Source of the DNA: an uncultured Rikenellaceae bacterium
GTDB taxonomy: Bacteria; Bacteroidota; Bacteroidia; Bacteroidales; Rikenellaceae
Reading direction: 5' to 3'
DNA: 64,000 nt
Assembly (NCBI GenBank): GCA_944326945.1
Contig: CALVFY010000008.1
Span: 9,994-73,993 of the forward strand
Positions 2,834 through 47,045 of this stretch are shown here, piece by piece. A program made the position numbers and the translations under genes. The notes beneath the pieces are model-generated. The model ran no database searches. It was not told the DNA's origin and saw nothing but the letters and a program-made list of their open reading frames with translations. Numbering within the stretch: the stretch's first letter is position 1; every line of letters starts with the position of its first letter.

Positions 2834-2881
2834 TGGAAACAGGGGATTGTTTTATATAATACTTACGGTAATTTTTCGAAC

Positions 2882-7811: not shown

Positions 7812-7941
7812 ACTCCATTGATTTTTAAATGAAAGCGGAATTTTTTCAACTACTGTTATTCCGCTAACAAATATAGCAATATAATTTATACGATTCTCAT
7901 TCCCCCTTAAAAATTTTTTTCATCAAACATCCACCTCTGTT

Positions 7942-7976
7942 AAAAAAATGATAGCCGCCACAAAATATGCGACGGC
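7942..7976 (-). terminator. Candidate rho-independent terminator after the esterase gene
   Basis: On the minus strand, GCCGTCGC-atatttt-GTGGCGGC (8 bp with two G-U pairs) is followed by TATCATTTTTTT. Confidence 0.4.
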
Positions 7977-8002
7977 AATCATTCTTTTCGTCAGAGTTTT
8001 CC

Positions 8003-9427
8003 TTATCGAATATCATCCCAATCGTCCGTACGGAACGGGAAAACGGGTTGTCCGTAATGATTCTTCAGATTCGCTCCCTTCACATAACCCCGGAATGCAT
8101 AACGCACCGCAACCGGTTCGGGAACCTGATCCGACCACACCTCCACCATCTGCTTTCGGTTTACGACACGGGCTTCGGCCGGATAGAACTTACGGTCGGC
8201 ACCGGCAATCTCGAATCCCTCCAACGGCATCAACATTTTACCCACACCCTGAGTCGCATTGTCGAACGAAACGATCGCCTTGCCTTTCTCGAAGACCACC
8301 GATTTATAGATCGGTCCGGTAGGCGGAATCTCGCTCATGCCATAGGTTTTCGAAAGTGCGAGCAGGGCCAGTCGTTGACCCACGGGCTCCTTACGCCCGG
8401 GATGGCCACACTTCTCTTCGCCCACATCGGTCGTTCCCACGATACCCGAATGAGGGATCAACGACTGGGCCTTCACCTGGGCCTCCATAAACAGAGCTGC
8501 CGGCGTACCCTCCTTATATCCATAGGGTGCGATCTGCACATAATAGAACGGCATCTCGGGATTTCCCCACTTCTCCCGCCACAGATTCACCATAGCGGCC
8601 TGCATCTGAGGATAGAGTTTGTAGTGCGACCGGCTCGATTCCCCCTGATACCAGATGAATCCACGAGCCGTATAATTGGTCAGAGGAGCGATCATTCCGT
8701 AGTAGAACAGAGTCGGGACATCCTGCGGACGAGGATTGTCCAAACGAATGGAGTCGCGCGGGAAGGGAGGCAACTTGTCAAGCGTAGGCCTGTCGATCCA
8801 GCTCTCGATACGAGAACCTCCATAACTGGCCGTGATGATTCCCACAGGCACACCGCCCAATGCGTCGGTCAGATGACGCGCAAAGAAATAGGCCACGGCG
8901 CTGAACATTCCCACACACTGCGGCGAGGAAACTTCCCACTCCCCCGCACAATCCTGTTTGGGTTCGAGGGCCCGGGCCGATTTCACCCAGAAACTGCGGA
9001 TCTGAGGATACTTCCCGGAAGAAAGCACCGTTTCTGCCGTATTCTCCATGTGCTGATTGATCGAACCGCGCACCCGATATTGCATATTGGACTGACCGGA
9101 GCAGACCCACACCTCGCCGATCATCACATTCTTCAATGTCACGGGCTCTCCATCTGAGATGTCGATCGTATAGGGACCGCCCCATGCGGGAGTCTTCACC
9201 TTCACGATCCAACTACCGTCATCGGCAGCCATCGCAGCATAACTGTTCTCATCCCAGGAGGTAGCCACGGTCACCTTTTTCCCCGGATCGGCCCAGCCCC
9301 AGATATTCACCTGGCTCTGCTGCTGAAGCACCATACCGTCACCCATCAAAGAGGGCAGTTTCACTTTGGCCGTCAAGCCTGTCGCCGCTGCACAAAGCAA
9401 AACGATCAACATCAGTTTCTTCTTCAT
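8003..9427 (-). CDS. Sialate O-acetylesterase (SASA-domain carbohydrate esterase), secreted
   Basis: 474-aa ORF with the signal peptide MKKKLMLIVLLCAAATGLTA. The GEVWVCSGQSNM motif is typical of the SASA/9-O-acetylesterase family. Confidence 0.75.
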   Translation of the reverse strand: MKKKLMLIVLLCAAATGLTAKVKLPSLMGDGMVLQQQSQVNIWGWADPGKKVTVATSWDENSYAAMAADDGSWIVKVKTPAWGGPYTIDISDGEPVTLKNVMIGEVWVCSGQSNMQYRVRGSINQHMENTAETVLSSGKYPQIRSFWVKSARALEPKQDCAGEWEVSSPQCVGMFSAVAYFFARHLTDALGGVPVGIITASYGGSRIESWIDRPTLDKLPPFPRDSIRLDNPRPQDVPTLFYYGMIAPLTNYTARGFIWYQGESSRSHYKLYPQMQAAMVNLWREKWGNPEMPFYYVQIAPYGYKEGTPAALFMEAQVKAQSLIPHSGIVGTTDVGEEKCGHPGRKEPVGQRLALLALSKTYGMSEIPPTGPIYKSVVFEKGKAIVSFDNATQGVGKMLMPLEGFEIAGADRKFYPAEARVVNRKQMVEVWSDQVPEPVAVRYAFRGYVKGANLKNHYGQPVFPFRTDDWDDIR

Positions 9428-9451
9428 TTCAATTGTTTTTTAAGATTACTA

Positions 9452-10747
9452 TCAATAAATGTTCATTTTCGGATGCCAAGGGAAAGTGCGACGAACGATC
9501 CGCACCATCTTTCGAGTCTTCTGAATCAAATAGGCGTTACTGCTTTCGGCATATTTTTCATACAGCGGAGCCGTATATCCCCGAATGGTAAGCAACTCCA
9601 TATCGGAGTTATAGACCACACGAAACTCCGATTGAAGTCGTTCCACCACCTGTTTCAGCTGACGCGAGGCATCGACACAGATACTCAGATTCACCGCAGA
9701 ACTCTGGATCAGATTGGTGTGGATATGATACTGTTCGAGCAACGAGAAAATATCGACCATCCGCTCCTCGATCACAAAGGAAAAATCCTTCGGACGGATC
9801 GACAGCAGCACCTGATTGGGCTTGAAGATCAGAATCGGAGCTTCAATCCGGCCCGTCATCTCCCCCCGAATCACACTACCCGGTTTCCGTTTGTCCGAAA
9901 ACGGCCGCACATAGAGCGGAATATTCTTGTTTTGAAGCGGCTTTATGGTCTTGGGATGAATGATCTGCGCCCCGCTGTAAGCCAATTCAATAGCATCGAG
10001 ATAGGTGAGTTCCGGGATATGGACCGTATCCGAAAAGATCTTGGGATCGGCATTGAGAATTCCCTCCACGTCTTTCCAGATGGAGAGACTCTCCGCGTCG
10101 AGCAGATTAGCCACCACGGCCGCCGAATAGTCCGATCCCTCACGCCCCAAAGTGGTAGGCTCGCCGGCTGCCGTCGAACCGATAAACCCCTGCCCCACAA
10201 ACACACGTCCCTCTGCCCCGGAAACAGCCCTCTTCAATAAAGGCGCCGAAAGCGACAGATTGATATTGGCATCCCGGTGTCGCGTACTGGTCACAAAACA
10301 GCGACGCATATCGATCCAGCGATTCGAGACTCCGGCATGACGGAGATAGGCCGAAACGATCGTTGTGGAGATCAACTCTCCGAAACTGACAATACGATCA
10401 TACCACCGGTCGTAGTCGGTTTCCCGAGGTTCCTCTCCGGAGAGAATCTCCCGCACTTCCCGATAAAGAGTCTCCACGGCATCGGACACCTCGACAGGAA
10501 CCCTCTCCGGAAAAAGTCCGGCAAGAATTTCGGCATGATTCCGCTCAACCCGTGCGAAAGCCTCCAACGCACCCTTCCGATCACCAGCCATAAAACGTTC
10601 GAGCACACCCTCCAATGCATTGGTAGTTTTTCCCATGGCTGATACCACGACAAAAAGCGGGCCCGGTTCATCGCGGACAATATCGCACAAATTTCTCACT
10701 CCGTCGGCCGAACGGACCGACGCTCCTCCGAATTTATAGACTTTCAT
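9452..10747 (-). CDS. lysC: Aspartate kinase
   Basis: 431-aa ORF. The N-terminus is MKVYKFGGASV...VVVSAMGKTTNALE. The kinase core has GREGSDYSAA, and the C-terminal ACT-like region is present. Confidence 0.85.
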   Translation of the reverse strand: MKVYKFGGASVRSADGVRNLCDIVRDEPGPLFVVVSAMGKTTNALEGVLERFMAGDRKGALEAFARVERNHAEILAGLFPERVPVEVSDAVETLYREVREILSGEEPRETDYDRWYDRIVSFGELISTTIVSAYLRHAGVSNRWIDMRRCFVTSTRHRDANINLSLSAPLLKRAVSGAEGRVFVGQGFIGSTAAGEPTTLGREGSDYSAAVVANLLDAESLSIWKDVEGILNADPKIFSDTVHIPELTYLDAIELAYSGAQIIHPKTIKPLQNKNIPLYVRPFSDKRKPGSVIRGEMTGRIEAPILIFKPNQVLLSIRPKDFSFVIEERMVDIFSLLEQYHIHTNLIQSSAVNLSICVDASRQLKQVVERLQSEFRVVYNSDMELLTIRGYTAPLYEKYAESSNAYLIQKTRKMVRIVRRTFPWHPKMNIY

Positions 10748-10768
10748 GAAACGACGCTGTTAGAAATA

Positions 10769-10790
10769 CCTCCCGGATCAATCCGGGAGG
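10769..10790 (-). terminator. Stem-loop between the prolyl oligopeptidase stop and the lysC start
   Basis: Perfect 9-bp GC-rich inverted repeat CCTCCCGGA-tcaa-TCCGGGAGG. Only a weak T tract follows on the minus strand. Confidence 0.45.
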
Positions 10791-10801
10791 CTTGAAACTC
10801 C

Positions 10802-12946
10802 TTATTTTTTGAAATCGACCGGCGTATTCGTATTCCAGAACAGGAATGAAAACGTATCGGCTTGTTCTTCGATCTTCTTGGCAATCGGTTTGCCTGCTCC
10901 GTGTCCGGCTTTGCTGTCGATACGGATCAGCACCGGTTTGTCACATGCCTGGGCAGCCTGCAGCGTGGCAGCAAACTTGAACGAATGAGCGGGCACCACC
11001 CGGTCGTCATGGTCGGCCGTGGTAACCAGCGTGGCCGGATAACAGGTTCCCGGTTTGATGTTGTGCAGCGGAGAATATTTATAGATATATTGGAACTGCT
11101 CGGGGACATCACTGCAACCGTATTCTACCACCCAGCCCCAGCCGACTGTAAATTTATGGAAACGAAGCATATCCATCACGCCCACAGCTGGAAGTGCCAC
11201 GGCGAAAAGATCGGGACGTTGTGTCATGCAGGCGCCCACCAGCAATCCTCCGTTCGATCCCCCGGCGATAGCCAGTTTTTCGGGCGAGGTGTATCCATTG
11301 GCCACGAGATACTCGGCTGCGGCGATAAAGTCATCGAACACATTCTGTTTCTTTTCGAGCATACCGCCCCGGTGCCATTTCTCGCCGTATTCGTTCCCTC
11401 CGCGCAGGTTGGGAATAGCCACGATTCCGCCTTGTTCCATCATCAGCACATAAGTCGGACTGAAACCAGGCGTCAGACCGATATTGAAACCGCCATAACC
11501 GTAGAGATAAACCGGATTCTGACCATTGAGTTTCATATCCTTCCGGTGTACAAGGAACATGGAGACCTGCGTACCGTCTTTGCTGGGATAGAACACCTGT
11601 TCGGTGGTGTAGAGATCCGGATCGAACGGCAGTTCCGGACGCAGGAAGAGCGTCGATTCGCCATTGGCCAGATCATAACGATAGATCGACGCCGGCGCGG
11701 TGAACGTACCCATGGCATAGAAGGTCTCCGTATACTTTTTCTTGCCGGAGAAACCCCATGTAGCACCAATCCCGGGCAATTCCACTTCACGTACCAGCTT
11801 ACCTTCGGGCGTATACTGATAAACTCTATTCATGGCCTTTTCCAGATAGGAGGCCATCAGGTAACCGCCCACCGAGCTAACGGTCTCCAGCATGGAAGAG
11901 TCCTCGGGAATCACATCCCGGGCACTCTTGCGAGGATCGAACAAAGCCAGATTCACCTCGATCACCTTATAATTGGGCGCTCCCTCGTTGGTATAGACCC
12001 AAGCCCGGTCATTCTCACACTCCACCATCCCGTAATCATATTCGAACCCGGGGAACAGCACCCGGAAACCGGCTCCCGGACGACGCTGATCCTTATAGTA
12101 GATCTCTATACCGTGAGTTCCCTCCGAGGCTGAGACAAACAGATAGTGGCCGTCGCTGCTCTCCCATGCATTGAAATAGCGAAGAGGATTCTTCGGGTCC
12201 TCGTACACCAGCACATCCTGCTCCTGAGACTGTCCCAGCACATGATAATAGACCTTCTGGAATCGATTCTGCCCCGATAGCTCTTCTCCCTTGGTCGGTT
12301 CATCGTAGCGGCTGTAATAGAATCCTTTCGAATCGGCGCCCCAGCTGGCTACGGAAAACTTCACCCATTTAATGACGTCGGGCAACAACGTTTTGGTAGC
12401 GACCTCCATCACCCGAATCTCCACCCAATCGGAGCCCGAAGCAGCCGCCGAATAGGAGAGATAACGTCCATCCTCGGAGAATGAAATCCCCGCCAGAGCC
12501 ACCGTACCATCCTCGGAGAGGGTATTCGGATCGAGGAACACCTCCGGAGTGCCGTCCAGCCCCTTCTGACGATAAAGAATACTCTGGTTCCGCAGTCCGT
12601 CGTTACGGAACGTGAAATAATAATCGCCCACTTTCTCAGGAATTCCCTCCTTCGGATAATTCCACAATTGAGTCAGCCGCTCCTTCACCGCATTTCGGTA
12701 AGGTATTTGCGAGATATAATCATTGGTGACCTCATTTTCGGCGGCGACCCATTCGGCCACTTCAGCCGACTGATCGTTCTCCATCCACCGGTAGGGATCG
12801 GCCACAAGCGTACCGTGGTAATTATCCACCGTGGAGTCCATACGGGCCACAGGATAAGGTTTCGTTTTGATTTTCATATTGTTTTTACAATCGACGCAAC
12901 CGATGGCTACGGCTCCTAACAAAAAAAAGTAAATCGTTTTTTTCAT
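10802..12946 (-). CDS. Prolyl oligopeptidase (S9A serine endopeptidase)
   Basis: The ORF runs to 12988, but the likely start is the internal MKKTIYFFLLGAVAIGC at 12946. The catalytic Ser motif GGSNGGLLVGA and the C-terminal AGHGAGKP are present. The N-terminal beta-propeller region is typical of the family. Confidence 0.85.
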   Translation of the reverse strand: MKKTIYFFLLGAVAIGCVDCKNNMKIKTKPYPVARMDSTVDNYHGTLVADPYRWMENDQSAEVAEWVAAENEVTNDYISQIPYRNAVKERLTQLWNYPKEGIPEKVGDYYFTFRNDGLRNQSILYRQKGLDGTPEVFLDPNTLSEDGTVALAGISFSEDGRYLSYSAAASGSDWVEIRVMEVATKTLLPDVIKWVKFSVASWGADSKGFYYSRYDEPTKGEELSGQNRFQKVYYHVLGQSQEQDVLVYEDPKNPLRYFNAWESSDGHYLFVSASEGTHGIEIYYKDQRRPGAGFRVLFPGFEYDYGMVECENDRAWVYTNEGAPNYKVIEVNLALFDPRKSARDVIPEDSSMLETVSSVGGYLMASYLEKAMNRVYQYTPEGKLVREVELPGIGATWGFSGKKKYTETFYAMGTFTAPASIYRYDLANGESTLFLRPELPFDPDLYTTEQVFYPSKDGTQVSMFLVHRKDMKLNGQNPVYLYGYGGFNIGLTPGFSPTYVLMMEQGGIVAIPNLRGGNEYGEKWHRGGMLEKKQNVFDDFIAAAEYLVANGYTSPEKLAIAGGSNGGLLVGACMTQRPDLFAVALPAVGVMDMLRFHKFTVGWGWVVEYGCSDVPEQFQYIYKYSPLHNIKPGTCYPATLVTTADHDDRVVPAHSFKFAATLQAAQACDKPVLIRIDSKAGHGAGKPIAKKIEEQADTFSFLFWNTNTPVDFKK

Positions 12947-38988: not shown

Positions 38989-39087
38989 CATACACCATTT
39001 ACACACCACTCACTCCCTTAGACCTCTTGATATGCCAATAAACGGGATCAATCGGCACGAATATGCGCCCGTCCCTCCTGCTTCAAA

Positions 39088-39939
39088 TCACACAATCTTT
39101 TGATTGATATTACGGTACTGTTTCGGAGTAATACCATATATACGGTTGAATACACGATAGAAATATCCCAGATTGCGATAACCGCACTTGCAACAGATCT
39201 CTTTTATAGGCATACTGGTCATGGATAACTGACTTACGGCATAACGCATCTTCATTTCCAAAATAAGTGAGATCAAAGTCTTTCCCAGGCAACGTTTTAC
39301 CACACGATTTACATAATCCTCATTCCGGTTGCACAAAGAGACAAAATAGGATACTCCCTTGGTAAATGACTCGGGATTGTTATAGATCTTGATGGCATTG
39401 GCAAGCCACTCCGGGACATCAAGGAACTCCTCGATATGTACTTTCGAAACAATCTGCCGGAAAAGGAAAAGCAGAAAACTGTCCTGCTGGATAATGTTGC
39501 GTTCCTGTCTCATCAAATCCTCCGCCCTTGCAGATAGCCTCTTGAGAATGTCTTTGGAAAGGAAGGTATGAAACGGGACTATAGATTCAGTCCAAAAAAA
39601 GTCGGAGGATGTCTGAAAATAACGTTCCCTTAAAAAAGCGAGAGTCGACTTGGGGAAAGCTATATTCACCAGCGTCAATCCCTTTCCGAAAGAGGAAAAC
39701 GTATGAGTATCGTCAGGTCTTATCATATATAAGTCTCCGGCAGCAATCCGGACATCATGTCCGTTGACATGATGCACCCCCTCCCCGCATTCTATCCAGA
39801 ATATTTCCGAATAATCATGACAGTGATAGGTAAGGTCCTGTTTCGAAGTAATATTTACCCTTGCTATATGGAAAACTTCCCCGGCCCGAAGGAAGAAATC
39901 CAATGCAAATCTCTCGGCCATACTCCATTTTTTGCGCAA
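39088..39939 (-). CDS. AraC/XylS-family transcriptional regulator (N-terminal cupin sensor plus C-terminal double HTH)
   Basis: 283-aa ORF with an alternative start MAERF at 39921. The cupin part is HCHDYSEIFWIECGEGVHHVNG and the C-terminus is ICCKCGYRNLGYFYRVFNRIYGITPKQYR. It is divergent from the GRE operon. Confidence 0.85.
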   Translation of the reverse strand: MRKKWSMAERFALDFFLRAGEVFHIARVNITSKQDLTYHCHDYSEIFWIECGEGVHHVNGHDVRIAAGDLYMIRPDDTHTFSSFGKGLTLVNIAFPKSTLAFLRERYFQTSSDFFWTESIVPFHTFLSKDILKRLSARAEDLMRQERNIIQQDSFLLFLFRQIVSKVHIEEFLDVPEWLANAIKIYNNPESFTKGVSYFVSLCNRNEDYVNRVVKRCLGKTLISLILEMKMRYAVSQLSMTSMPIKEICCKCGYRNLGYFYRVFNRIYGITPKQYRNINQKIV

Positions 39940-40021
39940 AATTACATAAAAAGTCGGAATAAGATAAATAATCTACATTTTATCAAAATAAGTTCATCGC
40001 ATAAGGATAATAAATATAACA

Positions 40022-40029
40022 TAGCTTTG
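40022..40029 (+). promoter_or_regulatory. Candidate -7 promoter box (TAGCTTTG) for the GRE operon
   Basis: Matches TAnnTTTG, 14 nt upstream of the first in-frame ATG (40043). A later Met codon at 40076 (MTGTITTIQRMSIHDGPGIR) could be the real start. Confidence 0.35.
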
Positions 40030-40042
40030 TAAAGGAGTAAGT

Positions 40043-40969
40043 ATGATTTACGGACCTTTTCAAAACACTAATCCTATGACTGGTACAATAACCACTATAC
40101 AAAGGATGTCTATCCATGACGGTCCCGGAATCAGGTCTACCGTCTTTATGAAAGGATGCAACCTGAGGTGCAAATGGTGTCATAATCCGGAAACATGGAG
40201 TCGTGCAAAACAACTGCAACACATAGAATCGAAGTGTCTGCACTGTTTTTCATGTATTTCAGTATGTGAACAAAATGCCATTTCTTCCATTGAAAATCGC
40301 ATAAAGATAAACCATCAGGCATGCAATACTTGTGGCAAATGCTGTGAAAAATGCCCTTCGGAAGCCCTGTCGGCAATAGGACGGGAGGTGACGGCAGATT
40401 CTTTGACAGAAGAATTGGAAAAAGACAGGGTTTTCTACGAGACATCTTCCGGAGGAATTACAATATCCGGAGGAGAGCCCTTCATGCAGGCCGATTTTGT
40501 GATCGAACTGCTCGAACAATGCCAAAAAGAAGGATTGCATACTGCCATTGAAACCAACATGTCGATGCCCTGGGAATCCATATTCCCGGCCCTGTCTCAC
40601 ACAGACCTGTGGATGTGCGACCTGAAAGTATTTGATTCCGACAAACACAAATACTGGACAGGCGCGGGCAACGAAAGAATCATGGACAATTTGGCCAGAC
40701 TTGCCAAAACCGGAGCAGAAATGATAGTCAGAACTCCGGTAATTCCGGGTGTAAACGACAATGAATACGAAATAAAGAATATTTGCGGATTCCTGAAAAA
40801 AATCGGAGGCAATGTCAGATACGAACTGCTGAAATTCCACAATCTCGGTTTCGGAAAATTCGACAACCTGGGTATGACCAATGAAATGGACGCATCAGCC
40901 CATTTGGAAGACAGCACGTTTGAACAGCTGAATGAAATCGTCAAATCTAATTATTTCCCAAAACCATGA
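40043..40969 (+). CDS. Glycyl-radical enzyme activating protein (radical SAM, with two auxiliary ferredoxin-like clusters)
   Basis: 308-aa ORF with HDGPGIRSTVFMKGCNLRCKWCHNPE (the CX3CX2C radical SAM motif). It also has CLHCFSCISVC and CNTCGKCCEKCP (CX2CX2CX3C type). The SAM-binding region GGITISGGEP is present. Confidence 0.9.
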   Translation: MIYGPFQNTNPMTGTITTIQRMSIHDGPGIRSTVFMKGCNLRCKWCHNPETWSRAKQLQHIESKCLHCFSCISVCEQNAISSIENRIKINHQACNTCGKCCEKCPSEALSAIGREVTADSLTEELEKDRVFYETSSGGITISGGEPFMQADFVIELLEQCQKEGLHTAIETNMSMPWESIFPALSHTDLWMCDLKVFDSDKHKYWTGAGNERIMDNLARLAKTGAEMIVRTPVIPGVNDNEYEIKNICGFLKKIGGNVRYELLKFHNLGFGKFDNLGMTNEMDASAHLEDSTFEQLNEIVKSNYFPKP

Positions 40970-43101
40970 ACCGTTTCGATGAACGAATAGCCAGGCTCAG
41001 AGCCAGGAAATTAGCCCAAACAGAAGAAAAAAGAAAAATAGAGGGCGTACTTGATGAAGACGACTACGGCAGAATCGTTCCGCCTAAAGGTCTGTGGGAA
41101 CCAATGCCCAATTCTCCCGATGGCTCTTTTTACGGCTTCAAGGGATGGACGGACAACTTTTGTTCCCTGATGGATGTCCACCCTGTATATGTGGATGCAG
41201 ATGATGCCTTTACAGGCAGATGGATGTACTTCATGTCCAGAATGAGAAAAAACAAATGGAATCCCGATTATCCATACACTCATCTTGAAAAGGACATCGA
41301 AAAATACGATATTATCTGTGGCATCGGTGACGACGCCCACTTCGCCCCTGACTACAAGATGGGCGTAAGTCTCGGTTGGGGTGGTTTAATCGAGAAAATA
41401 GAAAAATACAAAACACTGAACAACAGCGCAGAGCAAAAGGAGTTTTATGACATTCACCTGCGTGCAATCCACAGTATCCAGGGATGGATGAAACGTCACA
41501 TAGAAAAATCCCTGGCAATGGCGGCAGAAGAATCTGACGAATGGAAACGCAACAATCTGCTGGCTCAGGCAGCAGTCAATAAAAACATATTGAACGCGGC
41601 ACCTACGACCCTTCGCGAAGCCTGCCAGTGGATAATCTGGTATCACCTGGCCTCAAGAACATACAATAGAGACGGTGCCGGCGGACAAATCGACAGTCTG
41701 CTCCAACCGTTCTATGAAAACGACTTGAAAAATGGTATCATTGACAGGGATACCGCGGTATACTATCTTGCATGTTTCCTTATCAACGATCCTATCTACT
41801 GGCAGTTGGGAGGCCCTGACAGAAACGGCAACGACCAGACATCTGAAATTTCATACCTCATTCTGGATGCCGCGGACAAGATAAACACCTCTCTGAATAT
41901 TACGATCAGAGTACACGACGGCCTGGATAAGAAGTTGTTTGACAAGGCTGTAGGCTATCTCGTAAAGAACAAGAATGGATGGCCGAGATTCTCCGGCGAC
42001 AAGGCTTTAGTGGAAGGATTCATGAGAAACGGATATTCCAAAGAGCTGGCTTTAGAAAGGATTGCCGTCGGATGCAACTGGATGTCATTGCCGGGTCTGG
42101 AATACACAATGAATGACTTGGTAAAGGTCAATATGGCCAAAGTATTTGAAGTCGCTCTGTACGAAACGCGTGAAAGTGAAAACATATGCACGGAATCTAT
42201 TTGGAATGCCTTTACAAAGCATCTTCAAATAGCAGTTCACACGGCTGCAGAGGGCATAAGACATCATTTGAAATATCAGAAATACAACGAACCGGAACTT
42301 CTGCTCAACCTTTTGAGTCATGGTCCTCTTGAAAAGGGGAAAGACGCATCCGACGGAGGTGCCCAATACTACAATCTGGCCATTGACGGAGCCGGACTGG
42401 CCATTGTTGCCGATTCCTTTGCTGCAATGGAAAGACATATTGAAGAACAACACGAAATCTCGTGGGGAGAACTGTTCTCCGCTTTGGAAAATGACTTCAC
42501 CGGAGATCAACACGAAAACACCAGAAGAATACTTAGAAAGACTGACAGATTTGGCAAGGAAAATTCCTGCGGTGAAAAATGGGCTGTCAGAATAAAGGAC
42601 TGCTTCACAGACATCGTCCGCAATGAATCAGAACCTGGCAAGTGTTTCATTCCCGGATTCTTTTCATGGGCCAACACGGTCGGATTCGGCAAAACCGTCG
42701 GAGCGACACCCGACGGACGACATGCCCGTAAACCTATTTCCCATGGAGCGAACCCTTCTCCGGGTTTTGTTTCCGACGGAGCGTCACTTTCACTGGCGAA
42801 GGCCGTTGCCAAAATCCAGCCCGGATACGGAAACACGGCACCGATGCAGTGGGAGCTGGATCCCACATTTGCCATGAGCAGCAACATTGAAATCATAGAG
42901 GCCATAATAAAAGCTCATTTTGAATTGGGGGGAACACTGATCAATGTGAACATAATGGATAAGGAAAAGATCTTGGAAGCCCATCGGAATCCGGACAAAT
43001 ATCCAGATCTTGTTGTCAGAGTCACCGGATTTACCGCATATTTTTCGATGTTGTCTCCTGAATTCCGCCAACTTGTCGTAGACAGACTCCTGGTAAGCTA
43101 A
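40966..43101 (+). CDS. Glycyl radical enzyme of the PFL-like fold, unassigned subfamily (711 aa)
   Basis: The start overlaps the activase stop (ATGA). The C-terminal glycyl-radical motif is DLVVRVTGFTAYFSMLSPEFRQLVVDRL, with Gly688 at 43027-43029. GATPDGRHARKPISHGANPSPG lies upstream. The candidate thiyl Cys370 is in ERIAVGCNWMSLPG (42073-42075), 318 residues before the Gly. Confidence 0.85.
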   Translation: MNRFDERIARLRARKLAQTEEKRKIEGVLDEDDYGRIVPPKGLWEPMPNSPDGSFYGFKGWTDNFCSLMDVHPVYVDADDAFTGRWMYFMSRMRKNKWNPDYPYTHLEKDIEKYDIICGIGDDAHFAPDYKMGVSLGWGGLIEKIEKYKTLNNSAEQKEFYDIHLRAIHSIQGWMKRHIEKSLAMAAEESDEWKRNNLLAQAAVNKNILNAAPTTLREACQWIIWYHLASRTYNRDGAGGQIDSLLQPFYENDLKNGIIDRDTAVYYLACFLINDPIYWQLGGPDRNGNDQTSEISYLILDAADKINTSLNITIRVHDGLDKKLFDKAVGYLVKNKNGWPRFSGDKALVEGFMRNGYSKELALERIAVGCNWMSLPGLEYTMNDLVKVNMAKVFEVALYETRESENICTESIWNAFTKHLQIAVHTAAEGIRHHLKYQKYNEPELLLNLLSHGPLEKGKDASDGGAQYYNLAIDGAGLAIVADSFAAMERHIEEQHEISWGELFSALENDFTGDQHENTRRILRKTDRFGKENSCGEKWAVRIKDCFTDIVRNESEPGKCFIPGFFSWANTVGFGKTVGATPDGRHARKPISHGANPSPGFVSDGASLSLAKAVAKIQPGYGNTAPMQWELDPTFAMSSNIEIIEAIIKAHFELGGTLINVNIMDKEKILEAHRNPDKYPDLVVRVTGFTAYFSMLSPEFRQLVVDRLLVS

Positions 43102-43134
43102 AGCAGCGTAAACACATAAAAAACACTGAAAAAA

Positions 43135-43551
43135 ATGGAACTGATTGAAAAATACAGTTATAACGGGAGCGGATACGACCCATTCCTGATAAGCGACAAC
43201 TGGCAGATTGCCATTCTGAACTATGCAGAGGCTGACAACATAGACTCAATATACAATTTGGATATTCACCATGAGACAGACGAAGCTTTCATGCTTATCC
43301 AGGGAGACATCGTCCTTATAAGCGCCTCAATAGAAGGCACTGATGTTTCTTTTGAGAATGTCAAGTTGGAACCGGGAATTGTATACAACATACCGAAGAA
43401 TGTATGGCACAAGGTTGCCACAACACCCGGCAGCAGCGTACTGATTATAGAAAAAGCCAATACCCACCTCGACGACTTTGAATTCCACGACCTTAATGAA
43501 AAACAAATCGCCGAACTGAGAAAAGACGTAAAATCAAAATTAAATAAATAA
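43135..43551 (+). CDS. Small cupin-fold protein of unknown function
   Basis: 138-aa ORF with cupin-like motifs: DIHHETDEAFMLIQGD (H-H-E...G) and EPGIVYNIPKNVWHKV (P-x-G...H). It sits between the GRE and the UroD-fold gene. Confidence 0.5.
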   Translation: MELIEKYSYNGSGYDPFLISDNWQIAILNYAEADNIDSIYNLDIHHETDEAFMLIQGDIVLISASIEGTDVSFENVKLEPGIVYNIPKNVWHKVATTPGSSVLIIEKANTHLDDFEFHDLNEKQIAELRKDVKSKLNK

Positions 43552-43557
43552 GCAATT

Positions 43558-44589
43558 ATGAACGGATATACAAGATGCCTGAAGGCTTTGAATTGGGAAA
43601 AGCCTGACCGAATACCGGTTATACCTCAGAACTCGGACATGTCGATTCACCTTTCCGGATATGGCATGAAAGAATGTCTGTATGACGGGAAAAAACTGGC
43701 AAACGCACTGCTCAGTGCACAAGAAAAAATGGGTTACGACGGCATTATGATTGGACCTGACGCCTCTATTCTGGCAGAAGCCACAGGATGTGAAGTAGAC
43801 TACAGAGATGACGATCCTCCTGCCGTTACCGCTCCAATCCTGACCCGCCTGGATGAGGTTGACAAACTGGAGGTGCCTGATTTAAGCAAAAATCAAAGGA
43901 TCAAAGCCTGGCTGGATGCCACAAAAGCCATCATAGAAAAGACCAAAGGCGAAATATTTGTAATTTGCCGTGCCGATCAAGGTGCATTTTCACTGGCATC
44001 CTTGTTGAGAGGCAGCCAGGAATTCATGATAGATCTTGCAATGGGAGAACAGCCGAAACAAGTCAAAAAACTGTTGGATTTTTCGAATAAACTCCACATA
44101 CAGTTTGCCGGCCTGATCAAAGAAAGCGGAGCACATGCCACCACTTGCGGAGACGCATACTGCGGACCCGGCCTGATAAGCCCTGAAATGTACAGGGAAT
44201 ACGCCCTCCCTTATCAGAAAGAGGCTGTAAAGGAAATTCAGGACAGAATGAAGTTGCCCTACTCCATACATATTTGCGGTGTAACGGATAAAATACACGA
44301 CTGTTGGCCTGATACCGACGCTAAATTCTTTGAAGTGGATCATTGTACGGATATAGTGTCGCTTAGGAAGAAAACGTATGGCAAGACCTCTCTTTTCGGA
44401 AACATAAATACGTCTTCTCTGTGCTTTTCATCTCCGGAAGAGATCAAAACAGAATGCAACGAATTGTTCGATAAAATTAACCCGTCAACCGGATTTATTC
44501 TGAGTTCCGGGTGCAGCATGTCAGCCAATTCAAAGACAGAAAATGTCATTGCCATGATGGAAGCTGCAAAAGAATATGCAATCAGATAA
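43558..44589 (+). CDS. Uroporphyrinogen-decarboxylase (URO-D) fold protein of the MtaA/MT2-like methyltransferase branch
   Basis: 343-aa ORF. The N-terminus CLKALNWEKPDRIPVIP...MGYDGIMIGPDASILAEATGCEV is typical of URO-D family members. The pattern H238-x-C240 (SIHICG, 44269-44277) plus C319 (SSGCS, 44512-44514) resembles the H-x-C-x(n)-C zinc site of MT2 enzymes. Confidence 0.75.
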   Translation: MNGYTRCLKALNWEKPDRIPVIPQNSDMSIHLSGYGMKECLYDGKKLANALLSAQEKMGYDGIMIGPDASILAEATGCEVDYRDDDPPAVTAPILTRLDEVDKLEVPDLSKNQRIKAWLDATKAIIEKTKGEIFVICRADQGAFSLASLLRGSQEFMIDLAMGEQPKQVKKLLDFSNKLHIQFAGLIKESGAHATTCGDAYCGPGLISPEMYREYALPYQKEAVKEIQDRMKLPYSIHICGVTDKIHDCWPDTDAKFFEVDHCTDIVSLRKKTYGKTSLFGNINTSSLCFSSPEEIKTECNELFDKINPSTGFILSSGCSMSANSKTENVIAMMEAAKEYAIR

Positions 44590-44785
44590 GTTCTTCCACG
44601 GTTTTCAGAACAAAATGTCTCCATGGCGAAGTGCTTCTCTTCAACAGAGGGGCACTTCACCCCCTTGAATTACTGCACAATACATTCCCGATACAAGTAT
44701 TTTAACTTGAACAAAGCTGAAGTTCGATGCAAGTTTTTGAAAAGGTCCGACACAATATAAGTTCGTATAATAATTCTATCATAGA

Positions 44786-45934
44786 ATGAAGAATATGGCA
44801 AAATTATTACCGATATTACTCTCATTCTACGTAATGGGGTTTGTAGACATGGTTGGTGTCTCAACGAGTTATGTAAAACAAGACTTTTCGTTGAGCGATA
44901 CGTTAGCCAACCTGCTGCCGATGTTGGTATTTCTTTGGTTTGCGGTCTGTTCCTTACCCGCGGGCATGTTGACAGGGAAAATTGGACGTAAAAAAACAGT
45001 CTTGTTAAGTACGGTAGTGACGTTCGTAGCCATGCTGTTACCCATTATCCACTATTCGTATGCAGTCATATTGCTGTCGTTTGCCTGTTTGGGTATAGGC
45101 AATACCATACTTCAGGTCTCCTTAAATCCGTTATTGGCCAGCATAGTCAATCCGTCGAAACTGACAAGTATGTTATCTTTGGGAACTTTTATCAAAGCCA
45201 TCGCCTCCATGGGCAGTCCTCTGATTTTGGGTTTTGCCGTCAGTCTGACCGGTAAATGGCAGTGGATATTCCCCATCTATTCCGGTATCACTTTGCTGTC
45301 TGCCGTGTGGTTGTGGGCCACCCCGTTTGAAGAAACTATCGTGGAAACCAAGAGACATTCTTTTGTTTCGATTATAGCATTGTTGAAAAATTCGTTTTTA
45401 TTACAATGCTTTTTAGCCATTGTCTTGAGTGTAGGCTTTGAAATAGGATTGATGACTGCTGTCCCCACGTTTCTGTTTGAACGCTTCGAAATGCCCCTGG
45501 AACAGGGAGGAATGGGATGCAGCCTTTACTATCTTGCACGTATGTCAGGGACCTTTATCGGCTCCATTGTTTTAGCGAAGATATCTCCATTCCGCTTTAT
45601 CCGTTGGAACTTATTGGCAGCTCTACTGTCTTTTGTCACATTTGTTGTGTCGCCGAATACGACAGGATGTTTGGTCTCCCTGTTCTTGTTGGGTCTCTGC
45701 TGTGCCAATATTTTCCCCATCATGTTCTCCGCGGCTTTGCAGCACTCTCCGGAAAACACCGACAACCTCTCCGCACTGATGATCATGGGCATAGCCGGAG
45801 GGGCCGTTTTACCTATGATAATGGGCGCAGTCGCAGATATGAGCAATCAAACGGTCAGCCTGATTGTGCCGTTCCTGGCTTTAGTATACATATATTATGT
45901 GGCTATATCCCAAAAGGATATATGCAAGAGGTGA
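44786..45934 (+). CDS. MFS transporter resembling the fucose/galactose/glucose:H+ symporter (FHS) family
   Basis: 382-aa polytopic ORF with the N-terminus FYVMGFVDMVGVSTSYVKQDFSLSDTLANLLPMLVFLWFAVCSLPAGMLTGKIGRKKT, which is FucP/GlcP-like. Confidence 0.75.
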   Translation: MKNMAKLLPILLSFYVMGFVDMVGVSTSYVKQDFSLSDTLANLLPMLVFLWFAVCSLPAGMLTGKIGRKKTVLLSTVVTFVAMLLPIIHYSYAVILLSFACLGIGNTILQVSLNPLLASIVNPSKLTSMLSLGTFIKAIASMGSPLILGFAVSLTGKWQWIFPIYSGITLLSAVWLWATPFEETIVETKRHSFVSIIALLKNSFLLQCFLAIVLSVGFEIGLMTAVPTFLFERFEMPLEQGGMGCSLYYLARMSGTFIGSIVLAKISPFRFIRWNLLAALLSFVTFVVSPNTTGCLVSLFLLGLCCANIFPIMFSAALQHSPENTDNLSALMIMGIAGGAVLPMIMGAVADMSNQTVSLIVPFLALVYIYYVAISQKDICKR

Positions 45935-46081
45935 CTTCATTAGATACCGTATGACAGTTCCTCGCGGAGAGACTCCGGACGGACATTCCTCTGCGCCAAC
46001 AGATGGGTCGGTTTATAAAGGGATATATCAATATGTTTTCTAAAAAACCACATCATCTATTTCTTTTTTTAACCATTTAGG

Positions 46082-46134: not shown

Positions 46135-46992
46135 ATGAAATTGAAATCGCTGCAAGACACCTATTCACTCTGTAACGGGAACAAAATACCTTGCGTAGGA
46201 TTCGGGACTTTTCTCACTCCGGAGGGAAGCACTACCGTCAATTCTGTCAAGGAAGCGCTTCGCGTAGGCTATCGGCTGATCGATACTGCCGCCATCTACG
46301 GAAACGAACGAAGCGTGGGTCAAGCTATTCGCGAAAGCGGCGTCGGCCGCGACGAAATCTTCGTCACCAGCAAACTGTGGAACCGGGACCAGGGATATGA
46401 ATCGACTCTGGAAGCCTTCGATCGGACAATGAACGCCCTGGGGATGGACTATCTCGACCTCTATCTGATCCACTGGCCCATCGGCAAAGGTCACGAACAC
46501 GATTGGGCCGAGATGAATCGCGAAACCTGGCGAGCCATGGAAAAACTCTATCGCGACGGATATATCGGGGCCATCGGGGTAAGTAATTTCATGCCTCATC
46601 ATATCGAATCGTTGATGGTGACCGCAACGATTGCCCCTATGGTCGACCAAATCGAAATCCATCCGGGCCTCAACCATACCCAAGCCGTAGAGTACTGTCA
46701 ATCCCACGACATTGCCGTAGAGGCATGGGGTCCGCTCTCCCAAGGTCATCTTTCCGAAATGCCTGCCTTGAATGAAATTGCCGAACGCCACGGCAAAACG
46801 GTCGCCCAGATCTGTCTGCGTTGGCATCTGCAAAGAGGAATCATTCCTCTTCCCAAATCGGTTACCCCTTCGCGGATCGAAGAGAACAGTCGTATTTTCG
46901 ATTTCGAACTGACGCCCCGGGAGATGGAATTCATCGGTCAGATAAACGGACCTGTCGGGTCGGGAGCCGATCCGGATAAAGTGGCCCACTAA
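46135..46992 (+). CDS. Aldo/keto reductase (2,5-diketo-D-gluconate reductase-like)
   Basis: The ORF opens at 46087, but the likely start is MKLKSLQDTY at 46135. AKR motifs are present: GFGTF, DTAAIYGNE, SKLWN, LDLYLIHWP, IGVSNF and IPKS. Confidence 0.9.
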   Translation: MKLKSLQDTYSLCNGNKIPCVGFGTFLTPEGSTTVNSVKEALRVGYRLIDTAAIYGNERSVGQAIRESGVGRDEIFVTSKLWNRDQGYESTLEAFDRTMNALGMDYLDLYLIHWPIGKGHEHDWAEMNRETWRAMEKLYRDGYIGAIGVSNFMPHHIESLMVTATIAPMVDQIEIHPGLNHTQAVEYCQSHDIAVEAWGPLSQGHLSEMPALNEIAERHGKTVAQICLRWHLQRGIIPLPKSVTPSRIEENSRIFDFELTPREMEFIGQINGPVGSGADPDKVAH

Positions 46993-47011: not shown

Positions 47012-47045
47012 AATCGGCGTATTCGAAATTTCGAATACGCCGATT
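47012..47045. terminator. Bidirectional terminator hairpin between the AKR and phoU genes
   Basis: Perfect 34-nt palindrome AATCGGCGTATTCGAA-AT-TTCGAATACGCCGATT between two convergent stops. Confidence 0.7.

Follow-up and report, generated by a model that had tools for sequence, protein, structure and literature searches.

The locus analyzed here raises the question of what a UroD-fold protein with a methyltransferase-type zinc signature does in the operon of a glycyl radical enzyme (GRE), with no corrinoid partner next to it. The window, that is to say the whole stretch of DNA that was analyzed, is 64 kb (64,000 nucleotides) long. An earlier note on this DNA regarded the pairing of a UroD-fold protein with a GRE as undescribed, and we found no description of it in full-text literature searches or in the June 2026 GRE review. 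Full-text searches for GRE with cupin, for GRE with mannosidase or PUL, and for corrinoid with methylated sugar or O-methyl mannose likewise returned no description of the system, and GREs are mentioned merely in passing in PMC7660257. The association of the UroD protein with an uncharacterized GRE may provide an oxygen-free route for the removal of methyl groups from sugars.

The operon, its glycyl radical enzyme, and its cupin

The UroD gene (43558–44589, + strand) lies in a run of + strand genes encoding a GRE activating enzyme (40043–40969), a 711-aa GRE (40966–43101), a 138-aa single-domain cupin (43135–43551), the UroD protein, an MFS sugar transporter (44786–45934), and then an aldo/keto reductase (46135–46992). 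The end of the activase gene overlaps the start of the GRE gene, and the gaps from GRE to cupin and from cupin to UroD are 33 bp and 6 bp, respectively. This spacing, the common strand, and the lack of an intervening terminator agree with the earlier note, which had placed the UroD gene inside a GRE operon. On the + strand, no convincing terminator was found before a 34-nt perfect palindrome with a 15-bp stem (47012–47045), which is the likely end of the transcription unit, and no terminator-like site with a stem longer than 5 bp was found upstream of the aldo/keto reductase gene. The aldo/keto reductase (Pfam Aldo_ket_red, E = 3.5e-52), which is not conserved among related loci, is possibly the last gene of this unit. 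An AraC-family regulator with a cupin ligand domain and an HTH (39088–39939, − strand; Pfam HTH_18, HTH_AraC, and AraC_binding) is encoded divergently from the operon, and its homologs with 50%–72% identity flank the same GRE in other genomes (loci L006, L036, and L040). The GC content at the locus is 42%–46%, compared with 48%–52% in the flanks. The transporter (Pfam MFS_1; NCBIfam gluP, NagP, and fucP all below cutoff) has homologs with 46%–55% identity that adjoin orthologous UroDs in L001, L044, L045, L126, and L128; this UroD clade is accompanied by MFS transporters of the gluP/fucP/NagP-like type.

The GRE (Pfam PFL-like and Gly_radical) has the hallmarks of its superfamily, namely Gly688 (43027–43029, + strand) in the motif VRVTGFTAYF, Cys370 (42073–42075, + strand) in the loop IAVGC-N-W-MSL, and an adjacent radical-SAM activase. 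The activase (Pfam Radical_SAM and Fer4_12), which has a ferredoxin-like insert and a CxxxCxxC motif at residue 39, scored 356 bits against TIGR02494 (PFLE_PFLC; cutoff 174). All NCBIfam equivalogs for the GRE itself lay far below cutoff. Its best PDB relatives are PflD/YbiW (E = 4e-53 to 1e-41), in which C-V-E stands opposite the C-N-W loop in the alignment. A CxE motif is stated to be required in GRE 1,2-eliminases and isomerases (PMC13450708), whereas the window GRE reads IAVGC370-N-W-MSL in place of the VGC-V-E of PflD. At identities of 68% or more, the GRE family counts at least 120 clusters, with the C-N-W loop in 118 of 120 members and the glycine motif in 112 of 120. The family is large, tightly conserved, and uncharacterized, and the 2026 GRE review does not include it. 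Its usual operon has the order AraC-activase-GRE-cupin-RhaT, without a UroD gene.

The cupin between the GRE and the UroD protein had been overlooked in the earlier note. It belongs to no Pfam family; its Pfam and NCBIfam matches are all below threshold, a weak match to Cupin_2 being the only one in Pfam. The best fold match to its AF2 model (pLDDT 94.9) is 3D0J (CA_C3497, function unknown; TM 0.94), followed by generic dioxygenase cupins with TM below 0.6. Because 3D0J lacks the equivalents of H92 and H111, it gives no functional clue. The invariant residues D43, H45, E50, and H92, together with H111, constitute a putative metal site. On the sub-threshold profile matches and this fold search, in which the top match is unannotated, an identification with a known enzyme was rejected. 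A role as a mere small subunit of the GRE is also unlikely, since members of this family with the same conserved residues are partners of UroDs in genomes that have no GRE nearby.

Cupins of this family adjoin a GRE in L036–L042 and L123–L125, and UroDs in L001, L004, L005, L043, L044, L046, L047, L019, L060, and L064. Cupin and UroD genes overlap or are separated, stop to start, by no more than 12 bp in every case. Because the usual operon of the GRE family contains the cupin without UroD, the cupin is the shared element, and neither the UroD clade nor the GRE family has a partner that recurs more consistently. In most other Bacteroidales, GRE and cupin stand as a module of their own. In a neighbor-joining tree without bootstrap support, the window cupin groups with the GRE-type cupins, which suggests that UroD and MFS together joined a GRE-cupin operon that was already in place.

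A UroD-fold protein with an MtaA-type ligand set

The UroD protein (343 aa, ATG start) matches Pfam URO-D across its full length (E = 9e-62), and the URO-D fold, as the earlier note had recognized, is seen in its AF2 model (mean pLDDT 95.6, pTM 0.93). The top Foldseek matches to this model in the PDB are the MtaA structures 4AY8 and 4AY7 (TM 0.89–0.92, RMSD of approximately 2.0 Å), and HemE structures rank below them (TM 0.81–0.85). In a profile search, the MtaA/CmuA-type models scored best, with PRK06252 (166.9 bits, cutoff 244) and TIGR01463 (MtaA/CmuA subfamily; 162.2 bits, cutoff 235.4) at the top, followed by NF040654 (MtaA; 133.7 bits, cutoff 400) and NF041608 (MtbA; 118.6 bits, cutoff 600); the hemE model TIGR01464 scored far lower (67.1 bits, cutoff 302.95). 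Every curated NCBIfam cutoff was missed. Within the URO-D superfamily, these results support grouping the protein with the MtaA/MtbA-like members (zinc, HxC...C) rather than with the HemE decarboxylases. Because the curated MtaA, MtbA, and MtaA/CmuA cutoffs failed, the profile scores place the protein outside the CoM-methylating MT2 equivalogs, and membership in the MtaA or MtbA equivalog was ruled out. Thus, of the assignment to the MT2 branch made in the earlier note, the MtaA-like zinc side stands, with MtaA as the best match, and the CoM-MT2 equivalog level falls.

HemE has an N-terminal substrate-binding signature of the PROSITE type, P-x-W-x-M-R-Q-A-G-R, which is absent from the UroD protein, where residues 20–29 read P-V-I-P-Q-N-S-D-M-S. 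The low hemE score, the missing signature, and a methyltransferase-type metal site together rule out HemE, and they leave the decarboxylation step after the radical reaction, one of the ideas in the earlier note, without support.

The predicted metal site consists of the motif S-I-H238-I-C240-G (H238, 44269–71; C240, 44275–77; + strand) and C319 (44512–14, + strand) within SSGC319S. In a phmmer alignment to M. mazei MtaA (4AY7), the H238/C240 and C319 regions pair with LHICG and PGCG, so that the HxC...C motif that had been read from the sequence does align with that of MtaA. These 3 residues are invariant in 38 of 38 sequences of an alignment reaching down to 37% identity and in 31 of 31 orthologs, and E259 (44332–34, + strand) and D261 (44338–40, + strand) are likewise invariant. 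By their equivalence with MtaA, H238, C240, and C319 are predicted to converge on one site; they fall on the MtaA zinc-ligand positions, which does not match the metal-free active site of the HemE type. The spacing H-x-C-x18-E-x59-C resembles the zinc-site pattern of MetE, which is His/Cys/Glu/Cys. All 66 columns that are invariant among the 31 orthologs, which include orthologs beside corrinoid-protein genes, are kept in the window UroD, and its sequence gives no sign of functional divergence from them. In the UroD superfamily, a His-Cys-Cys zinc sphere is stated to mark S/Se-methyltransferases, whereas O-demethylases carry carboxylates (PMC10418091). The window UroD is of the His-Cys-Cys type, and the O-demethylase-type sphere, in which Cys is replaced by Asp/Glu or a non-ligand (PMC10418091), is not seen.

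Corrinoid proteins and glycan loci around the orthologs

No corrinoid protein was found in the 64-kb window by tblastn with two corrinoid-protein queries (E ≤ 1e-3), and Pfam revealed no B12-binding domain in almost all other window ORFs of at least 120 aa, three his-cluster ORFs near 59–62.6 kb being left out. On the tblastn search and the Pfam results for almost all of these ORFs, a corrinoid protein hidden in the window was rejected. A tblastn search for UroD homologs returned the gene itself as the single match in the window, in agreement with the statement in the earlier note that the locus encodes no MT1. The statement that the UroD protein has no corrinoid partner holds for the 64-kb window but not in general, since corrinoid proteins adjoin orthologs in three other loci. 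The gene orders are MFS-UroD-corrinoid protein-UroD-CobW/MetH-activation-domain protein-cupin-ortholog in L001, where the ortholog is 73% identical to the window UroD; SusC/D-MFS-corrinoid protein-UroD-UroD-cupin-ortholog in L044; and sugar ABC transporter-cupin-PfkB-ortholog-UroD-SIS-corrinoid protein in L004. In Methanosarcina, unlinked MT2 genes are normal, mtaA being separate from mtaCB.

Among 15 distinct ortholog contexts, 10 contain a small metal-site cupin, 9 a paralogous UroD methyltransferase, and 3 a corrinoid protein, one of the latter (L001) together with an activation protein. The orthologs that adjoin paralogous UroD methyltransferases are 51%–73% identical. Nearly all contexts are N-glycan/α-mannosidase loci (GH38, GH47, GH92, GH125, GH18, and GH20) or monosaccharide-transporter operons, and the methylated sugar that the earlier note had offered as a speculation fits them well as a candidate substrate. 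Minimal modules of a transporter and a UroD, in some cases with a cupin, stand under a sugar-type regulator in the window, in L128 (MFS-GH38-UroD-GH38-GH125), and in L045, and a 39%-identical paralog occurs in such modules in L060 and L019. From these minimal modules, we argue that this UroD is the substrate-specific component.

The GRE is a minority partner of the UroD clade. Apart from the window, the pairing recurs in two further genomes (L006 and L126/127) with differing gene orders, so that co-occurrence with the GRE, which the earlier note had named among its checks, is real but limited to 3 of the 15 ortholog contexts; when loci were sampled from the GRE side, UroD and GRE were found together in 0 of 4. 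The L126 order is ortholog-activase-GRE-LacI-GH38-MFS-UroD, which unites a GRE and a multi-UroD methyltransferase cluster in one locus. The zinc positions of the "N-type" paralogs that accompany the ortholog in L004, L005, L008, L043, and L044 read H-x-D...H or H-x-C...D/H. In the Spirochaeta locus L008, the ortholog lies immediately downstream of two genes for YeeE/YedE-like sulfur transport and one for a class V aminotransferase (cysteine-desulfurase-like).

A proposed role and its relation to known systems

The reading that we favor, tentatively, is that the UroD protein is a methyltransferase dependent on both zinc and a corrinoid, that its substrate is a methylated sugar derived from glycans and its corrinoid carrier is encoded elsewhere, and that it feeds or complements the GRE/cupin pathway. 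We propose that it belongs to an uncharacterized MtaA-like clade ("O-type"), cytoplasmic and specialized for a glycan-derived methylated monosaccharide. The methylated sugar, for which an O-methyl-mannose-type sugar from N-glycans or α-mannans is the lead candidate, would be imported by the co-travelling MFS permease. The zinc ligands would be H238, C240, and C319, plus E259 or D261 in the exchangeable fourth position, and the metal would bind and polarize the methyl-bearing heteroatom. The methyl group would then pass from the sugar to a Co(I) corrinoid, either a corrinoid protein whose gene lies in another part of the genome or a free cobamide, and a second methyltransferase would hand it to an acceptor. 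The demethylated sugar would be processed afterwards by the adjacent cupin and GRE. Several observations count against this proposal. The His-Cys-Cys sphere (PMC10418091) speaks for a thiol or thioether, more than for an O-methyl sugar, as the substrate, and the paralogs with O-demethylase-like spheres in five loci could be the real sugar demethylases. The 64 kb contain no corrinoid protein, activase, or second methyltransferase for such a route, no curated NCBIfam cutoff is reached, the GRE is present in just 3 of 15 contexts, and the step of feeding the GRE is conjecture.

[quoted passage not shown] We consider this doubtful, although several points favor it: S-methyltransferases typically have such a ligand sphere, the closest relative is MtaA, the paralogs have the spheres expected for O-demethylases, and sulfur-related genes precede the Spirochaeta ortholog. 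Bacteroidales are not known to have the Wood-Ljungdahl pathway, so that a thiol methyl sink is plausible. A generic sink is unexpected, however, where it would be the lone methyltransferase and the locus, with its sugar transporter and glycosidases, is substrate-specific (for example, the window, L128, and L045); no thiol-related genes were found at the window locus, and the tight 6–12 bp coupling to the cupin would be left unexplained. Salvage of methylthio-sugars, selenium, or sulfur (an Mlp-type role), considered for the His-Cys-Cys sphere and L008, is a poor fit for genes between GH38 and GH125 mannosidases and is retained within this thiol-sink reading. The GRE and the corrinoid methyltransferase might also be alternative or complementary means of cleaving sugar methyl ethers, the GRE by radical chemistry with release of methanol and the UroD protein with nucleophilic Co(I), both with the same cupin step and combined in the window, for example, for different methyl positions. 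One cupin family with identical conserved putative active-site residues pairs with either enzyme in similar α-mannosidase loci, and GRE and UroD co-occur in three loci with differing orders. In all known eliminases and isomerases, the CxE glutamate deprotonates a hydroxyl; the lack of this glutamate in the window GRE is compatible with attack at the ether-bearing carbon instead. Nevertheless, the idea is purely contextual and distinctly unlikely, because no GRE ether lyase is known, the RhaT-type transporter of GRE-only loci versus the MFS of UroD loci suggests different imported substrates, and the differing products (a deoxy-keto sugar and a free sugar) make a shared downstream cupin step hard to rationalize.

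Cupin, UroD, and sugar transporter also form modules with no corrinoid protein nearby in the window, L047, L060, and L019, and the genes for cupin and UroD are always close or overlapping, from which one could imagine a corrinoid-free couple performing other zinc-thiolate chemistry on the substrate or product of the GRE, for instance direct alkyl transfer or reactions at C-S or C-O bonds. MetE-type relatives, which share the fold, methylate thiols without cobalamin. Such a couple is nonetheless improbable, as it is without precedent in the URO-D family proper, corrinoid proteins adjoin orthologs in L001, L004, and L044, and all characterized close relatives (MtaA, MtbA, MtsA, and Mlp2) are corrinoid users (PMC10418091). 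Least credible of all is a juxtaposition without function, in which horizontal transfer brought an accessory gene into the GRE operon, or a decarboxylase activity of the protein that follows the radical step. The low GC content, the GRE family that is normally without UroD, and the grouping of the window cupin with GRE-type cupins (UroD and MFS seemingly having been added later) would fit an accidental insertion, but three independent gene orders combine both families, always in mannosidase or sugar contexts, and the UroD gene is intact and tightly spaced with all invariant residues kept; a decarboxylase is opposed by the hemE score, the replaced signature, and the metal site described above.

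Methyl ethers on sugars block ordinary catabolism; among them are 3-O- and 6-O-methylmannose, which occur in glycans of algae, invertebrates, and microbes. The single sugar demethylase described, a P450 of marine bacteria, depends on O2 (PMC6292453). An anaerobic route is needed. If our favored reading is true, gut and sediment Bacteroidota would use methanogen-type corrinoid methyl transfer when foraging on carbohydrates, and glycan use would be linked to cobamide availability. The analysis also exposes, in α-mannosidase loci, a GRE family that is highly conserved and very large and whose Cys loop breaks the CxE rule, and it gives a genomic context to the structural-genomics orphan cupin 3D0J. 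More broadly, and with rather little confidence, we can envisage an undescribed O2-independent pathway for methylated sugars of N-glycans and α-mannans in anaerobic Bacteroidales and some Firmicutes, in which a metal-dependent cupin of the 3D0J family, an MtaA-like zinc/corrinoid methyltransferase, and a new class of CxE-less GRE that may use radical chemistry to cleave the ether or process the sugar are mixable parts; the window would then be a natural hybrid with both enzymes on the same sugar stream.

Compared with the Methanosarcina MT2 proteins MtaA, MtbA, and MtsA (4AY7/4AY8), which are the best NCBIfam and PDB sequence matches, the window UroD shares the URO-D TIM barrel and the aligned HxC...C positions; it differs in its identity of approximately 23%, in the sugar/glycan loci with a cupin, and in the lack of a corrinoid protein in the window. 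Because the host is a Rikenellaceae-type member of the Bacteroidales and not a methanogen, CoM is an unlikely acceptor. The Mlp proteins of type 1 mlp clusters (Kountz and Balskus preprint, PMC10418091) are likewise MtaA-like UroD-superfamily proteins with a His-Cys-Cys sphere in non-methanogenic anaerobes, and L001 and L044 resemble these clusters in combining several UroD paralogs with a corrinoid protein, L001 also with an activation protein. Type 1 mlp clusters are defined by at least 2 Mlp paralogs, a corrinoid protein, and a reductive activase, whereas the window has a single UroD alone. The mlp clusters lie in sulfur, selenium, and methionine-salvage contexts, mostly in Firmicutes (PMC10418091), whereas the window clade lies in N-glycan/α-mannosidase PULs and sugar-transporter operons; its cupin is not mentioned in PMC10418091, and the L001 activation protein is a CobW-MetH-activation-domain fusion, in contrast to the Ram/RACE of mlp clusters.

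The ether-cleaving O-demethylase methyltransferases I (OdmB, VdmB, MtvB, and CdmB, 9RUI) belong to the same superfamily, and their corrinoid-dependent removal of O-methyl groups is the reaction type proposed here. CdmB is very distant, matching only residues 205–336 of the window UroD (E = 1.4e-3); in these enzymes, carboxylate or non-coordinating residues reportedly replace one or both Cys (PMC10418091), and the substrates are aromatic compounds, not sugars. The window GRE shares the RVxG motif, the Cys loop, and a dedicated activase with PflD/YbiW, the isomerases of the sugars 1,5-anhydromannitol-6-P and 1,5-anhydroglucitol-6-P, and with the GRE 1,2-eliminases. It differs from them in being approximately 70–100 residues shorter at the N-terminus, in the near-invariant C-N-W in place of CxE, in a cupin partner that is always present, and in an operon without aldolase or kinase. 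The P450 6-O-methyl-D-galactose demethylase of marine Bacteroidota (PMC6292453) is a functional analogy only: it is cytoplasmic, acts in polysaccharide utilization, and removes the methyl ether of a monosaccharide so that catabolism proceeds. That enzyme has an unrelated fold, depends on O2, and releases formaldehyde, whereas the window system would be anaerobic and corrinoid-based, radical-based, or both.

Family and zinc motif of UroD

The open reading frame at 43558-44589 (+) encodes a 343-aa protein, UroD, which is covered end to end by the Pfam URO-D family (E 9e-62). The highest NCBIfam scores of UroD were obtained with MtaA/CmuA-type models (167 and 162 bits), and the hemE model scored 67 bits, far under its cutoff of 303. 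None of the curated NCBIfam cutoffs was reached, which rules out UroD as an MtaA, MtbA or HemE equivalog. The zinc motif claimed in an earlier note, S-I-H238-I-C240-G together with C319, was found at the positions given there, and H238, C240 and C319 do not vary across 38 homologues (down to 37% identity) or across 31 orthologues; E259 and D261 are likewise invariant. H238, C240 and C319 align with LHICG and PGCG of Methanosarcina mazei MtaA (4AY7). Structural comparison revealed that the AF2 model of UroD (pLDDT 95.6) superposes best on MtaA (TM 0.90, RMSD ~2.0 Å), followed by HemE structures. Because the three residues are equivalent to the MtaA positions, we infer that they share one metal site. 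Judged from its sequence and fold, UroD is a putative methyltransferase of the MtaA type. The observation of the earlier note on this gene is confirmed.

The GRE operon and its surroundings

UroD is preceded on the same strand by a radical-SAM activase (40043-40969), a 711-aa glycyl radical enzyme (GRE, 40966-43101) and a 138-aa cupin (43135-43551), and followed by an MFS sugar transporter (44786-45934) and an aldo/keto reductase (46135-46992), with an AraC regulator (39088-39939) divergent from the locus. The intergenic distances from the activase to the aldo/keto reductase are an overlap, 33, 6, 196 and ~200 bp, and no convincing + strand terminator was found across this gene run ahead of a perfect palindrome at 47012-47045. 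The proposed placement of UroD in a GRE operon thus stood, with the activase, GRE, cupin, UroD and MFS genes on one strand and short gaps up to UroD. The absence of a corrinoid partner also held for the window, where neither a corrinoid protein nor a second UroD was found in 64 kb. The aldo/keto reductase gene comes immediately after the MFS gene, and no terminator separates the two. The reductase may be part of the operon and could, for instance, reduce a keto-sugar product; it is not kept in the homologous loci L006 and L126 or in GRE-only loci.

The GC content of the AraC-to-MFS locus (39000-46000) is 42-46% versus 48-52% in the housekeeping flanks (ClpB, FtsH, Pst and his genes), which is consistent with an acquired accessory island. 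In the window, the his operon is found on the opposite strand, 11 kb downstream of the locus, and a his operon adjoins the homologous GRE locus in L036-39. The source is a Rikenellaceae-type member of the Bacteroidales; L031 matches the window at 98-99% identity, and GldH is encoded in the window. No glycosidase is present inside the GRE/UroD locus itself. The region 220-5746, 35 kb upstream, encodes an MFS_2 sugar transporter, an AGE-family enzyme (GlcNAc 2-epimerase/mannose isomerase-type) and a GH38 alpha-mannosidase; therefore, the genome also has alpha-mannoside utilisation genes.

Orthologue contexts and the putative reaction

The UroD orthologues at ≥50% identity form a small clade (O-type, ~49 clusters), of which 15 distinct contexts were examined. 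Their commonest neighbour is a homologue of the cupin (10 of 15), usually 6-12 bp upstream, and 9 contexts contain additional UroD paralogues. The earlier interpretation was partly supported: the MtaA-like type and a recurrent GRE link stood, but UroD is not generally corrinoid-less, for a corrinoid protein lies within the fetched flanks in 3 of the 15 contexts, namely L001 (MFS-UroD-corrinoid protein-UroD-(CobW + MetH activation domain)-cupin-orthologue-SusC/D-GH38), L044 (SusC/D-MFS-corrinoid protein-UroD-UroD-cupin-orthologue-LacI) and L004 from Peptococcaceae (ROK-sugar ABC transporter-cupin-PfkB-orthologue-UroD-SIS-corrinoid protein). In several genomes, the clade is thus tied to complete corrinoid methyl-transfer systems. 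Other contexts are L128 (MFS-GH38-orthologue-GH38-GH125), L045 (MFS-orthologue-ECF sigma-GH18) and L046 (GH20-cupin-orthologue-sugar transporter-UroD-AGE epimerase-ROK/SIS). In Firmicutes, the P-type paralogue clade (39% identical to UroD) is likewise paired with the cupin, together with monosaccharide ABC transporters. From these contexts, the O-type clade is tied to sugar and N-glycan/alpha-mannoside catabolism.

A GRE lies beside the orthologue in the window, in L006 (AraC-activase-GRE-cupin-GH47-UroD-...-GH38-like) and in L126/127 (UroD-activase-GRE-LacI-GH38-MFS-P-type UroD), that is, in 3 loci with 3 gene orders; the link is therefore recurrent, although a minority arrangement among the 15 contexts. 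A literature search found no paper describing a URO-D/GRE pairing, in agreement with the earlier note.

The P-type UroDs of L001 (2848-3906) and L126 (19718-20424), on Bacteroidota PUL contigs, are 82-88% identical to Lachnospiraceae-named proteins, and these identities suggest that the corrinoid methyltransferase cluster may have been recently transferred across phyla. At L001 5607-7184, a 525-aa fusion occupies the expected place of a corrinoid reductive activase. It combines a CobW/HypB/UreG-type GTPase (a metallochaperone family) with a region that matches the MetH activation domain weakly (E 9e-5), and is an unusual candidate zinc-delivery and corrinoid-reactivation protein.

Among corrinoid methyltransferases of the URO-D superfamily, S/Se-methyltransferases are stated to have a His-Cys-Cys zinc sphere, and O-demethylases to have carboxylates in place of Cys (Kountz and Balskus, PMC10418091). 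The O-, P- and M-type paralogues are His-Cys-Cys, and the N-type paralogues, found with the orthologue in five loci, have H-x-D...H or H-x-C...D/H. The O-type UroD could accordingly be a genuine MT2 that methylates a thiol, while O-demethylation would fall to the N-type paralogues; we consider this somewhat less likely than the reading favoured below. In L008 (Spirochaeta sp. UBA2779, 7495-11035), an orthologue without a cupin comes directly after two sulfur-transport genes of the YeeE/YedE-like kind and a cysteine-desulfurase-like class V aminotransferase, which hints that the O-type enzyme may handle a sulfur ligand. We tentatively favour the reading that the O-type UroD is a substrate-specific methyltransferase that would demethylate a methylated sugar after its import, with Co(I) as methyl acceptor. 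In its favour, several substrate-specific modules made up of a transporter, glycosidases and a regulator encode no other methyltransferase, and two-Cys zinc sites can activate oxygen ligands, as in MtaB. O-methyl-mannose-type sugars are proposed as substrates of this demethylation, since alpha-mannosidases and N-glycan enzymes dominate the contexts.

Under either reading, the corrinoid carrier would have to be supplied in trans in the genome of the window. In Methanosarcina it is normal for MT2 genes to be unlinked, and the GRE-linked orthologue of L126 is separated by 8 kb from the point where a P-type cluster begins. The relation of UroD to the GRE may be sequential or parallel. In a sequential route, the MFS transporter would import the methylated form, UroD would unmask it and the GRE and cupin would process it, and GRE-only loci (RhaT) would import the unmethylated compound; in a parallel one, GRE and UroD would be alternative ether-cleaving routes. 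No paper describing a corrinoid system for methylated sugars was found, and the sugar demethylase already described is a P450 that depends on O2 (PMC6292453).

The cupin and the C-N-W GRE family

The cupin occurs beside both GRE and UroD and is thus the element common to both systems. It belongs to no Pfam family, its profile search retrieved 645 representatives at E ≤ 1e-3, and no paper describing its function was found. The sole fold match of its confident AF2 model (pLDDT 94.9) is the unannotated structural-genomics protein 3D0J (CA_C3497; TM 0.94), which differs in lacking two of the conserved histidines of the cupin. All the conserved polar residues, which include the putative active site (W23, Q24, N29, D/E43, H45, T48, D49, E50, Y84, N85, W91, H92, E106 and H111), are shared by the copies that accompany the GRE, O-type UroDs and P-type UroDs, and D43, H45, E50 and H92 fit the two classical cupin metal motifs, which we take to be a putative metal site. 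Because the window cupin groups with GRE-type cupins in a neighbour-joining tree without bootstrap support, the UroD and MFS pair may have joined an existing GRE-cupin operon and taken the place that RhaT usually holds.

The GRE family is much larger than its UroD link and tightly conserved; among the clusters listed, each of the best 120 has at least 68% identity, at a length of ~713 aa. UroD was absent from all 4 contexts sampled from the GRE side, which show either AraC-activase-GRE-cupin-RhaT or a GRE amid SusC/D, GH92, GH38, GH47, GH76 and GH30, the latter with a cupin nearby. PULs with alpha-mannosidase genes (GH92, GH38, GH47 and GH76) are the setting of this family. The GRE-cupin system around UroD may be more novel than UroD itself, and the putative function to which three conserved components point, all of them uncharacterised and amenable to experiment, is an anaerobic sugar pathway that has not been described.

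The GRE has the glycyl motif VRVTG688F and the Cys loop IAVGC370-N-W-MSL (Cys370 at 42073-42075), a loop motif present in 118 of the 120 relatives. No paper describing this C-N-W family was found, and no family like it is listed in a June 2026 GRE review, according to which CxE is kept in every characterised GRE eliminase and isomerase (PMC13450708). The C-N-W loop, which aligns to VGC-V-E of PflD, replaces this CxE, and the family is probably a new functional class.
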